A DNA stretch of 15,511 nucleotides from a virus (UHGV-1637942); one strand, 5' to 3'. Shown: positions 1-3,361, counted from the first letter of the stretch. Numbers and translations: made by a program. Notes: generated by a model not told the origin, from the sequence alone.

Positions 1-2337
1 AATATTGCTACTGGCGGCTATCCAGTACAGCGCCGTACCAAGATAACGCGCGCTGGTTTCAACCTGCCTGATATCGATAATCCGCTTTTCCGAGAACCAG
101 AACTCAAACTGCACCGTCGGGTCATATACAGCCAGTTTCGGGACCGCTGTTATCTGAAAATACCCTGGTATCAGTTCAATAGTGACAGGCGCTGCCGGTG
201 CCGCAATCCGGAACGATACCGATGCCGGATCGCCCTGCTGCCCCCACGCATTTACCGCCCGGACCGTCAGCGTGTAACGCCCCAGCGCCAGTTGCCTGAA
301 GCGGTATGTGGTTTCCGTCGTCCGGGCCATGCTGACCAGCCGCTCACTGCCGTCGTCCGCTGCCACGGTAAGGCGAAGCAGGAAGCTCACGCCCTTCACC
401 ACCTTCGGCGTGTCCCATCGCGCCAGCACCTGATATTCCCCGCTGTCTGCGGTGACTTCGGCGGTCAGGTGCTGCACCGCTGGCGGCGTGACACCATTCA
501 CCGTGCCGCTCTGGTCGCCGTCAAAGTGCGCCCCGTTATCCACGATGGCTTCTTTTTCCGGTACATGCTGCACGGCGGTGATGGCATACGTACCGTCATC
601 GTTCTCCCGGATACTCACACAGCGGAACAGGCGCTGGCGCAGCGTCGGCAGCTTCAGCCCCCACACGCTGTATTCGGCAACGCCGTCAGGAACCCGGCTC
701 ACTTTCACCTTCACGCCGTCGGTGACGGACTGAACCTCCACGCTCACCGGATTACCCTGCCCGTCAACCAGGCTTATCAGCGTGGTGCCGGAGGATGGCA
801 GCGTGATTTCACGGTCGAGCGTCAGCGTCCGGGTCTGGCTGTTCACCGCCAGCACACGACCACCGGTGCTGATACCGGCATAGTCATCATCACAGATTTC
901 AATGACATCGCCCGGTACATGGCGAAGCCCTTCTGCGCCCACGCTGAAGTCCACGGTCTGCGTTTCCAGCAGTTCCGTTTTAATCAGCCACAGCCCGGCG
1001 CGGTGTGCCTGCCCCCGGCTGGTACAGCCAAAGGCATCCATCTTCGTGACGTTACGACCGTAACGGGCAATGGCCTGCGTATCTTCAACAAGCTCTGTCG
1101 CCGTCTCCCAGCCGTTGTTCGGGTCAATCCAGTTCACCTCAACGGCATTATGGCGGTCCTTCAGGGCGCTGAAGCTGTAGCGGAACGGCGCGCCATCATC
1201 CGGCATCACCACATTACTGCGGTTATAGGTCCACACCTTATCTGATGGTCGGTCCTGCACGAACGTCAGCGTCTGCCCGTTCCATACCGGCATACAGCGC
1301 ATCGCCGAGCAGAAATCACTGAGAACATCCCACGCCTTACGCTGTTGTGCCAGGTACGCATTAAAGGTCATCCGCGGCTCGGTCCCCCCGAAACCATCCG
1401 GGACCGTCTGGTCGCAGTACTGCCCGATGGCATACAGCGCCCACTTGTCCACATCCGCCGCCCCCAGACGTTTTCCCATGCCGTAGCGCGGGTGAGTCAG
1501 CATGTCCCACAGACACCAGGCCGGATTGTTGCTGTATGCCGGTTTCAGACTGCCGTCCCAGATACCACTGTACGTGCGTTTTTCCGGGTCATAGTTTGAC
1601 GGCACCTGGATGATGCGACCGCGGATATGGTAGTTCACCGTCATCTGCTGGCCGCCGAACTGCTCCGCATCCACCTGCAGCCCCACAATGGCCGTGTTCG
1701 GGTAGCACTGTTTCACATCGATGATTTCGGTGTATGACGACCACAGCGTCTTATTCTGCAGCTGGTCCGTGGTGCTGTCCGCCGTCTCCCTGACCATCCG
1801 GATGTTAAAGGGCCGGGGAGGCAGATTATCCAGAATCACCGAGGCCAGGAACTGCGAGGTGGTCTTGCCGTTAATGGTGACATCCTTTTCCGTCACCCAG
1901 CGGCCATTACGCTGTAACTGAATCAGAATCCGGACAGAGGAAGGATTACGGTCGCCCTTTGACGTGGTCTGCACCAGTGACTGCACCCCGAAGGTAACCC
2001 GCAGGCGGTCAATGTTCGCGGACGTAATGGTGCGCGTCACCGGTTTTGCCTTCGTCACTTCCACGCCCAGTCCGGTTTCAGCTCCGGAGGACTCAAAGCC
2101 TTCCGGTGGTGTCTGCTCCTGCTCCCCGGCACGCCAGACCGCGGTCACACCGTGTATCACGGGATTACCGTCCGTGTCCGTCAGCGGGGTTTTGTTCACC
2201 AGAATACTCTGCAGTCCCTTCACCGGACCTTCTATCGGTCCCTCACCAATCGCATCAATCACACTCATCATCTGCGTGGATTTGAGATTATCCTTCGCCT
2301 CACGAGGCGTGTGTGCCTTACCGCCACCTTTTCCCAT
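1..2337 (-). CDS. J: Tail tip attachment / host-specificity protein J (central tail fibre), N-terminal 779 codons; the 3' end lies beyond position 1
   Basis: Minus-strand frame is open from ATG (plus-strand CAT at 2335-2337) to the window edge; it is absent from the ORF track because no stop falls inside the window. My translation starts [39 protein letters not shown] and ends [16 protein letters not shown] at position 1, recognisable as lambda gpJ. SD-like GGGGAAGG lies 6-8 nt upstream. Confidence 0.9.
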
Positions 2338-2443
2338 ACAGCCTTCCCCTGAATAAATTAACCGCCACTTGCCATTCCGTACAGAAGTCGGATATCCTTC
2401 GCCCGAAAAGCATGAAACACATTTCTGCCATGCTAAAGAGAAA

Positions 2444-2475
2444 CCCCGGTATCAGCAGATACCGGGGTTTTCTTT
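2444..2475. terminator. Perfect 10-bp inverted repeat CCCCGGTATC / GATACCGGGG with a 4-nt loop, flanked by an A-run upstream and TTTTCTTTC downstream; candidate bidirectional intrinsic terminator or protein-binding palindrome
   Basis: Read directly: aaaCCCCGGTATCagcaGATACCGGGGttttctttc (stem 2444-2453 / 2458-2467). The complementary strand has the same hairpin followed by TTTCTCTTT. Confidence 0.45.
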
Positions 2476-2542
2476 CATGCCCACCGATAATCCTGTTGGT
2501 TAAAACCGGTAATGGCATAAAAATTCTGAATATCTTCACATT

Positions 2543-2570
2543 TTCACACACTGACTGTGGCGCGTATAAT
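2543..2570 (+). promoter_or_regulatory. Sigma70-like promoter on the plus strand: -35 TTCACA (2543-2548), 16-nt spacer, -10 TATAAT (2565-2570), with an AT-rich upstream tract
   Basis: Read directly: atcttcacatTTTCACAcactgactgtggcgcgTATAATttctctgcg. Perfect -10 consensus, 5/6 match at -35, spacer 16 nt. Points away from J and towards the 3' end of I, antisense to the late operon. Confidence 0.5.
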
Positions 2571-2576
2571 TTCTCT

Positions 2577-2680
2577 GCGTTAATTTTTTTGTCGTGATAT
2601 AAGAATAATTCCTTACACTTAATCTTCGTAACTCTCCCGCAGTTCCTGTCCGCGATCACTGCGGGATTTTTTTATTCTTT
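2577..2680 (+). ncRNA. Candidate small non-coding RNA of about 100 nt, antisense to the I-J intercistronic region of the late operon; family unknown
   Basis: Bracketed by the promoter (TSS predicted near 2577) and the intrinsic terminator at 2635-2680. No ATG-initiated ORF in any plus-strand frame in this interval. Contains a C/U-rich stretch (CCUUACACUUAAUCUUCGUAACUCUCCC) before the terminator hairpin. Confidence 0.4.
2635..2680 (+). terminator. Rho-independent terminator on the plus strand: 9-bp stem TCCCGCAGT / ACTGCGGGA, 14-nt loop, then TTTTTTTATTCTTT
   Basis: Read directly: TCCCGCAGTtcctgtccgcgatcACTGCGGGAtttttttattcttt. Lies immediately 3' of the I stop codon on the opposite strand (convergent). 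Confidence 0.55.
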
Positions 2681-3361
2681 TTACCCCTGCCGCCCGATAA
2701 CCACGACCTTTCCGCCCCCGCCTTCATCACGGGTGCTGATGTCCTGGGATATACGGCGGGAGCCAACCAGCATTTCCCCGTAAGGCACCGGCATCGGGTT
2801 CCCCTGGGCAATCATGTTATCCAGCGAGGAAAAGTACGTGTTCTGTCTGCCGTTATCCGTTGCGCGGTAATCCGGTGTTTTTGCCTTCGGGGCCAGCATC
2901 TGGGCCACTCCGCCCAGTATCATGCTGGCACCCAGTGAAAACAGCATCGTGGTGGCAGAAAAACTACCGGCACTCAGGGCTGTACCCCATAACGCCATCG
3001 AGCCTCCGGCCGTGAAGAAAGAGCCCACGATGGCTGCCGCCCCCAGCACAATCTGCAGTCCACCCTTTCCGGCCCCGGCCAGTCGCGGCACAATGTGGAT
3101 GACCGTTCCCTCACCCAGCTGTTCGTGAAGACGGGCGTACACCGCCTCCGGTGCCGTGTCATAACCGGCAATACGTATCTGGTACCAGCCTTCGTTCATC
3201 TGACGGCGAAAGCCCGGCATCTGCATCGACAGGGCGCGAATGGCTTCCGCTGCCGTGTTCACATACAGGCTGAGGCGGCGGCCAAATCGTTGTAAATCCC
3301 CGTGAAGGCAGATGCGTGCCAGTGGCGGTGACGCCAGACTGAATGCGTTCGTCGTTGCCAT
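2681..3361 (-). CDS. I: Tail tip assembly protein I
   Basis: ORF of 226 aa, MATTNAFSLASPPLARICLHGDLQRFGRR...GKVVVIGRQG, recognisable as lambda gpI. ATG at 3359-3361. Its 5' end overlaps the 3' end of K by about 100 nt in another frame, as in lambda. Confidence 0.93.
   Translation of the reverse strand: MATTNAFSLASPPLARICLHGDLQRFGRRLSLYVNTAAEAIRALSMQMPGFRRQMNEGWYQIRIAGYDTAPEAVYARLHEQLGEGTVIHIVPRLAGAGKGGLQIVLGAAAIVGSFFTAGGSMALWGTALSAGSFSATTMLFSLGASMILGGVAQMLAPKAKTPDYRATDNGRQNTYFSSLDNMIAQGNPMPVPYGEMLVGSRRISQDISTRDEGGGGKVVVIGRQG

Follow-up and report, generated by a model that had tools for sequence, protein, structure and literature searches.

A predicted PasB/EcOnc22-24-type small RNA gene with a divergent body within the I-J tail-gene spacer of a lambda-like prophage

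Introduction

What does a lambda-like prophage carry between tail genes I and J when these genes, which are close neighbors in lambda, lie 343 nt apart? The question is raised by a 15,511-nt stretch of viral DNA (UHGV-1637942, hereafter the window), in which the late operon (I, J) is on the minus strand. A first-pass annotation, made from the sequence alone, described the I-J spacer as AT-rich DNA harboring an autonomous non-coding unit, antisense to the late operon and delimited by its own promoter and terminator, and proposed that this unit was a moron with an RNA as its cargo. Here, we address which parts of that description hold, to which known RNAs the unit is related and what such an RNA might do in a lysogen.

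Results

The Spacer Between I and J Is a Mosaic

The spacer (2338..2680) is bounded by the stop codon of I (2681-2683) and the start codon of J (ATG at 2337). Tail assembly gene I (2681..3361, minus strand, 226 aa) was recognized by Pfam (Lambda_tail_I, E 6e-17) and in the ORF list. The frame ending at 2337 (1..2337, minus strand) is the 5′ part of J (tip attachment, host specificity), truncated by the window edge; its N-terminal 778 aa contain the Phage-tail_3, Ig_J and FNIII-A_GpJ domains (Pfam, E 1e-41 to 1e-44), and it is 97.9% identical at the DNA level, across 1 kb, to gpJ of the EPEC E2348/69 prophage PP6. The GC content is 0.39-0.41 in the interval 2401-2700 vs. 0.55-0.65 on both sides. 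The distance between I and J and the AT-richness reported in the first-pass annotation were thus confirmed by the Pfam flanks, the ORFs and the GC profile, and its figure of ∼60 nt for the lambda spacer agrees with the lambda record, which gives 60 nt (I end 15444, J start 15505). By BLAST, the full 343-nt spacer was found in 1,445 of 5,426 complete E. coli genomes, and in none of these 1,445 genomes is it annotated; strain 7/2 (NZ_CP023820.1) and UPEC 26-1 (NZ_CP016497.1) are examples of carriers of an identical copy.

Homology with the spacers of E2348/69, Sakai and the Stx1a and Stx2c phages starts at ∼2514-2517. The Stx1a and Stx2c phages have only 2517-2672 in common with the window spacer (BLAST), which corresponds exactly to promoter, RNA and terminator, and the J-proximal part (2338-2516) is a separate mosaic segment. 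When the late strands of the window, lambda, E2348/69 and Sakai spacers were aligned, the sRNA module (2517-2680) was placed between the I stop codon and a late-strand hairpin that is also present in lambda. Extra DNA relative to lambda is present, as had been proposed, but it is not the whole 343 nt. The BLASTN comparison recommended at first pass yielded both a homology boundary (∼2514-2517) and a distribution among E. coli genomes. The alignment is not that of an ordinary I-J spacer devoid of a conserved promoter and terminator: these two elements are the best conserved parts of the spacer.

The hairpin shared with lambda (2441..2476) has a 13-pair stem (2441-2453 with 2458-2470, AAACCCCGGTATC/GATACCGGGGTTT). 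It is bordered by T and A runs (2441-2470), and is therefore terminator-like on both strands, with fold z-scores of -7.1 (plus strand, 2404-2475) and -6.3 (minus strand, 2520-2441). A late-strand hairpin followed by a T-run is found just upstream of the J ribosome-binding site in all four spacers, and the lambda counterpart of the 2441-2470 hairpin is AAACCGCCtgcgGGCGGTTTTGT. The hairpin (2441-2476) lies outside the sRNA gene and recombines independently of the sRNA allele. This second strong hairpin (2441-2470) had gone unmentioned at first pass. A weak promoter-like sequence, TTGCCA-18-TATCCT (2369-2398, plus strand), and the hairpin at 2441-2476 could bound a second RNA of ∼70 nt.

Plus-Strand Signals Delimit a Predicted 97-nt RNA

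On the plus strand, the promoter region (2517..2570) comprises an A/T-rich upstream block (2517-2542), a -35 element (TTCACA, 2543-2548), a 16-nt spacer and a -10 element (TATAAT, 2565-2570). TTCACA-16-TATAAT (2543-2570) agrees with the sigma-70 consensus at 11 of 12 positions, and it is the only site with at least 11 matches on either strand of the 15.5-kb window, in which 0.04 such sites are expected from dinucleotide shuffles. At the other end of the unit, RNAfold predicts a hairpin (2635-2666) with a core formed by CCCGCAG (2636-2642) and CTGCGGG (2659-2665), followed by T7 (2667-2673). Hairpin and U7 together (2635..2673, plus strand) constitute an intrinsic terminator and a probable Hfq proximal-face site, with the last T (2673) 7 nt before the I stop codon. 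Since the late strand has A7 before this hairpin and no T-run after it, the hairpin is a terminator on the plus strand only, and a role as a late-strand terminator was discarded on the same ground. Both the near-consensus promoter and the strong plus-strand terminator noticed at first pass were recovered, the former as the sole such site in the window.

Taken from G2577, the 5′ end suggested by the position of the -10 element, to the last U, the predicted sRNA is 97 nt long (2577..2673, plus strand), an assignment supported by a covariance model (see below), the lack of an ATG and non-triplet indels among alleles. No ATG is present on the plus strand within 2577-2673, in agreement with the earlier statement that the unit has no ATG-initiated plus-strand ORF. 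The earlier size estimate of ∼100 nt was not borne out by the homologues, whose RNAs, which accumulate in lysogens, measure ∼83-85 nt by experiment, ∼14 nt less than promoter geometry predicts. A 5′ end near 2591 would match the 83-nt form annotated for PasB. Either the 83-85-nt species are processed from a ∼97-nt primary transcript, or the published 5′ ends are approximate. The first 15 nt past the predicted start (2577-2591, GCGUUAAUUUUUUUG) are kept across alleles and lie upstream of the annotated 5′ end of PasB.

The alignment of alleles revealed two elements in the body of the RNA. Three A-R-N triplets (AAG-AAU-AAU, 2601..2609, plus strand) are in the variable 5′ body, and similar A-rich triplets occur at the aligned position of other alleles (AACAAAAACAAC in PasB, AAAAAUAAC in EcOnc22). 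By analogy with the motifs of Tree et al. (2014), the triplets are possibly an Hfq distal-face site. The central block UUCCUUACACUUAAUCUUCG (2609..2628, plus strand; consensus ..CUCCUUAAC.UUAAUCUUC..) is the best conserved unpaired part of the body and a candidate seed. It is left unpaired by RNAalifold, which across 20 alleles supports the 7-bp terminator stem only, the body being unpaired.

PasB of EPEC E2348/69 Occupies the Same Position

PasB is an 83-nt RNA of prophage PP6, annotated at NC_011601.1 1466343..1466261 on the minus strand (Table S6 in Pearl Mizrahi et al., 2021, Sci Adv, PMC8550237). In the same record (NC_011601.1), I ends at 1466255 and gpJ starts at 1466496, so that PasB sits in the I-J spacer, antisense to the tail operon and 6 nt from the I stop codon. 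The target of its northern probe (AATCCCGCAGTGATCGCGGAGCT; Table S6, PMC8550237) is matched exactly over 23 nt at the PasB locus (L001) and over 20 nt in the window (2649-2668). The PasB transcript was seen by northern blot and RNA-seq, and in a Δhfq strain pasB showed a log2 fold change of -6.8 under activating and -2.4 under non-activating conditions (PMC8550237). In RIL-seq, PasB had 37 interaction partners, mostly CDS or 5′UTR, and was the second (sRNA-type) RNA in 99-100% of the chimeras; one chimera joins it to the intergenic region adjoining pasA (PMC8550237). In the motif table of that paper, PasB is credited with no common target motif (0 occurrences; PMC8550237).

The window RNA resembles PasB in its slot between I and J, its orientation antisense to the late operon and its 3′ end, 6-7 nt from the I stop codon. 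The promoter region (2517-2570) is 96% and the terminator 84% identical, the terminator core and U-tail (TCCGCGATCACTGCGGGATTTTTTT) are the same, and the 5′ leader is U-rich in both RNAs, which also share an A-rich run and the conserved ..UCCUU..AUCUUC.. block. In contrast, the body upstream of the terminator is only ∼61% identical (39 of 64 columns outside the shared terminator core), with several indels, among them 5 extra nt in the terminator loop. The variable body is at most 50% identical, and 64 of 89 aligned columns agree overall. The flanks are far closer (J 97.9%, I ∼93-96% identical between the window and E2348/69), and the sRNA body is thus an island of local divergence. The spacers differ in length (343 nt in the window vs. 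240 nt in E2348/69) because their J-proximal parts differ.

A survey of PasB variants (Zhu, Shabalina and Storz, 2026, bioRxiv 10.64898/2026.05.13.724894) used blastn with the 83-nt E2348/69 PasB as query, a word size of 28 and a query coverage >75%. Under these criteria, the window gave no megablast match at word size 28, and at word size 11 the match was 25 nt long with 30% coverage. Judged by its sequence, the window allele is a PasB homologue, yet it falls outside the “PasB variant” set of that study. The candidate seed UUCCUUACACUUAAUCUUCG agrees with the PasB region proposed by Zhu et al. (2026), who credited multiple Pas copies to repeated acquisition, not tandem duplication.

Some phages have an I-J spacer of ∼850 nt in which PasB-like units, two to four in number, follow one another in tandem, each antisense to the late operon (L286 12175-13010, minus strand; L280, L288, L293, L303, L304 and L308). 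Four units make up L286, the one array whose full sequence was analyzed, and every unit contains a TTCACATTT -35 element of its own, a -10 element, a divergent body and a terminator; in one unit the terminator stem is different. Complete copies of this four-unit array occur, unannotated, in 67 of 5,426 E. coli genomes.

EcOnc22-24 of EHEC Sakai Map to I-J Spacers

EcOnc22, EcOnc23 and EcOnc24 of EHEC Sakai were reported as Hfq-CRAC peaks, with a ∼85-nt northern signal, and as “destabilised” in Δhfq (Table S2 in Tree et al., 2014, Mol Cell, PMC4104026). We located them in the I-J spacers of prophages Sp15, Sp14 and Sp11. An exact 23-mer, GTTAATCTTCATCGTTCTCTCCC, is common to the reverse complement of the EcOnc probe and the plus strand of all three spacers (Sp15, L151 3175-3197; Sp14, L152 3206-3228; Sp11, L153 3156-3178), just upstream of a CCCGCAG...CTGCGGG-U7 terminator. 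The EcOnc22 peaks of Table S2 fall 24-84 nt from the J start in current RefSeq coordinates. Near 1.94 Mb, the Sakai coordinates of Tree et al. (2014) are ∼137-146 nt off NC_002695.2, and mapping of EcOnc needs a correction: with AgvB as control (L154 921-982), Rfam locates the gene at 1941920-1941981, and the tabulated peak is at 1941783-1941835. The identity of EcOnc22-24 as I-J spacer RNAs is settled by the published probe sequence.

The window RNA and EcOnc22-24 share slot, strand, gene architecture and the CCCGCAG/CTGCGGG-U7 terminator stem. They differ in the promoter region (72% identical, with CAATAAT/AATAAT as the EcOnc -10), in the body (47-70% identical) and in the terminator loop (GCTAACT in EcOnc, GCGATCA in the window). 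EcOnc22-24 (2014) and PasB (2021) appear, by sequence and position, to represent the same sRNA gene family at the same prophage site. Since the EcOnc and PasB probes both map to I-J spacers, two experimental studies have each arrived at this locus. Pearl Mizrahi et al. (2021) give no note of an EHEC homologue of PasB in their table, and the main text of Zhu et al. (2026) never mentions “EcOnc” (0 occurrences).

Alleles of the Family and Their Distribution

Window-type sequences were left out of the covariance model (R1), for which 11 PasB-, EcOnc22-, D-, F- and G-type alleles were used. From its first to its last position (1-96 of 96), R1 aligned with 2577-2673 (plus strand) of the window, at 62.6 bits and E 4e-10; the next match had an E value of 0.28. 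The window locus shows sequence and structure homology to the PasB/EcOnc22-24 family. It shares the location of the family, with a predicted RNA that opposes the late operon from within the I-J spacer and ends close to the I stop codon, and its gene signals, namely an own sigma-70 promoter (TTCACATTT... as -35 and a TATAAT-like -10) and a CCCGCAG/CTGCGGG terminator with U7. A single covariance model recovers all alleles of the I-J spacer sRNA family.

Across alleles, the mean pairwise identity is 0.78 in the promoter, 0.82 in the terminator and 0.47-0.54 in the variable body. The alleles are 91-104 nt long, and the body indels of 1, 2 and 5 nt are not multiples of three. Scans of IMG/VR gave 67 distinct module sequences, with at least six body classes. 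These classes combine freely with two kinds of J-proximal flank, which points to recombination at the conserved promoter. Four IMG/VR loci (L343, L358, L395 and L398) have the window-type body and terminator, with the canonical promoter swapped for an unrelated …CCTCAGGACGATAAATCCTTTCTCCCTGAAAAGAACGGCACATCC…; these copies may be promoter-less or differently driven.

Among the 5,426 complete E. coli genomes, 956 have the PasB-type RNA, 800 the window type (613 of these at ≥99% identity) and 542 the EcOnc22 type. None of the three types is annotated in the records of the complete E. coli genomes that carry it. These distribution figures cover E. coli and its phages. In the genome contig scan, the pattern CCCGCAGN{8,20}CTGCGGGATTTTTTT is a generic terminator shape, and unrelated phyla are among the matches listed.

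An Rfam search and a covariation analysis had been suggested at first pass. Rfam 15 at gathering thresholds gave 0 matches in the 15.5-kb window, and at E values up to 10 the region 2250-2750 gave only weak matches below threshold, which trace to the terminator-like hairpin (2441-2470). The PasB and EcOnc22 loci are themselves without an Rfam match, and the family is therefore absent from Rfam. RNAalifold detected no compensatory changes among the 20 alleles, the stem being invariant, partly because the loci were chosen by that stem. A full-text literature search with the terminator and body sequences found no paper.

These data suggest that (i) the window module is related along its whole length to two RNAs already detected by experiment; and (ii) its promoter and terminator are conserved around a body that differs from allele to allele.

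Discussion

The spacer between I and J probably contains, at 2543-2673 on the plus strand, a stand-alone gene for an Hfq-dependent, trans base-pairing sRNA, a divergent allele of the PasB/EcOnc22-24 family that would be expressed from the prophage. As far as can be read from the DNA, this predicted gene is a moron with a non-coding product, placed at the I-J junction of a lambda-like prophage. The host sigma-70 RNA polymerase would start near G2577 while the late operon is silent, and the terminator would halt the RNA 7 nt before I, so that antisense transcription would not run into the tail genes. The hairpin and U-tail, possibly with the A-R-N triplets, would load the RNA on Hfq, and the unpaired region 2592-2634, especially UUCCUUACACUUAAUCUUCG, would pair with host or prophage mRNAs or with other sRNAs, thereby changing translation or stability of the targets. 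Since the body is only ∼61% identical to that of PasB, the target set probably differs in part from that of PasB. The transcript and Hfq data belong to the homologues, and from them we infer expression, Hfq loading and targets of the window allele. When the sRNA body was scanned for duplexes with the 17 late-gene start regions in the window, z-scores ranged from -2.0 to +1.9 relative to shuffles, and none of these regions stood out as a phage target.

The proposal of an autonomous non-coding unit antisense to the late operon is strengthened by experiments at the PasB and EcOnc22-24 loci. The view of an RNA gene as a moron is likewise supported. RNAs of this kind, however, have already been described in the literature, even if Rfam and RefSeq annotation lack them. 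The I-J RNA moron as such is known, and the window harbors an uncharacterised, common and divergent third allele.

The late transcription unit encloses the whole gene, which is on the opposite strand, and this arrangement also suits a main role in cis. The RNA is perfectly complementary to the late mRNA just downstream of I, and during lytic growth, or when a superinfecting phage carries the same allele, RNase III cleavage or transcription interference would lower or uncouple expression of J and of the genes after it; local divergence of the body would make the effect allele-specific. Maintenance of promoter and terminator around a body of 61% identity, between flanks that are 93-98% identical, is compatible with such a role, and lambda OOP RNA provides a precedent. 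We consider it unlikely, however, that this is the main role: PasB pairs with 37 trans partners on Hfq, the behavior of a trans-acting sRNA; the window RNA ends 7 nt from the I stop codon and starts ∼240 nt from the J ribosome-binding site, and therefore covers no start site; and a single sRNA promoter is far weaker than late transcription. It is very improbable that the unit makes no separate transcript and consists of chance consensus matches or of late-operon signals such as a late-strand terminator or mRNA-stabilizing hairpins. The spacer does have a late-strand terminator-like hairpin (2470 to 2441) that is also found in lambda, but an 11/12 promoter is expected 0.04 times per window, the 2635-2666 hairpin is terminator-like on the plus strand only, and northern blots, as well as Hfq crosslinking or ligation, have revealed RNAs from two homologous alleles.

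A trans-acting RNA need not act on mRNAs directly. It might instead be an anti-sRNA or sponge in the manner of AgvB and AsxR, using A-R-N triplets to bind Hfq and titrating a core-genome sRNA. An A-rich run of the A-R-N type is present in the 5′ body of every allele (AAGAAUAAU in the window, AACAAAAACAAC in PasB), prophage sRNAs with a conserved 3′ end and a variable 5′ end antagonise GcvB and FnrS (Tree et al., 2014, PMC4104026), and PasB forms an RNA-RNA chimera with the intergenic region by pasA. We nevertheless regard this mode of action as quite unlikely. The window RNA has no sequence similarity to AgvB or AsxR, and the Rfam AgvB model (RF02702), which scored 96.5 bits at the Sakai positive control (L154), gave no match in the window, the PasB locus (L001) or the Sp15 spacer (L151); the prophage position is different (tail operon vs. 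PR′ moron site); the PasB partners are mostly CDS or 5′UTR; and the A-rich run of the window would not mimic a GcvB target, because it is not C/A-rich. A very small protein, encoded on either strand, is extremely improbable. Mechanical ORFs do extend over the spacer (113 aa on the minus strand and 94 aa on the plus strand, both from GTG), but these long GTG-started frames pass through the promoter or terminator and overlap J in a different frame, the only GTG of the ATG-less transcript meets a stop after one codon, and the allele bodies differ by indels of 1, 2 and 5 nt. The lack of an ATG and the non-triplet indels led us to reject this candidate.

In a broader and doubtful reading, the I-J junction of lambda-like coliphages might be a dedicated slot for sRNA cassettes, in which exchangeable, fast-diverging bodies are inserted in a conserved promoter/terminator frame and confer lysogen-specific, Hfq-dependent regulation. 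The allele classes in such a slot may number six or more, with one to four copies in tandem. A still more speculative possibility is that the body is directed, as an allele-specific antisense weapon, at the late mRNA of related phages that superinfect the lysogen. Were the slot reading true, the window allele would be a major member (15% of complete E. coli genomes) missed by existing surveys. The 2026 PasB survey probably under-counts the family and its spread outside pathovars, because its stated settings miss the window-type allele. With a conserved promoter and terminator, a divergent body and up to four tandem units, the locus is a convenient natural system for seed diversification of acquired sRNAs. 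Nothing in these results overturns current understanding.

Parallels are offered by AgvB and AsxR (Rfam RF02702 and RF02703), anti-sRNAs of 51-60 nt in EHEC lambdoid prophages, where the PR′ moron site that carries them adjoins stx or lysis genes. As with these RNAs, the window RNA is prophage-borne, is predicted to bind Hfq, has its own promoter and terminator, belongs to a family whose 3′ part is conserved and whose 5′ part varies, and contains A-R-N motifs. It is, however, unrelated to them in sequence and located in the tail operon. Membership in the AgvB/AsxR group was rejected on this location and on the lack of an RF02702 or RF02703 match.

Lambda OOP RNA, likewise short and antisense to a phage operon, has its own promoter and intrinsic terminator. 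It is a cis-acting RNA that overlaps the cII 3′ end and works through RNase III; no Hfq-dependent trans network is known for it, and it is unrelated to the window RNA in sequence and position. Protein-coding morons in lambdoid late regions, as outlined by Juhala et al. (2000), have their own promoter and terminator, are inserted between operon genes and are expressed from the prophage. The predicted gene in the window differs from them in that its cargo is a non-coding RNA, oriented against the operon.
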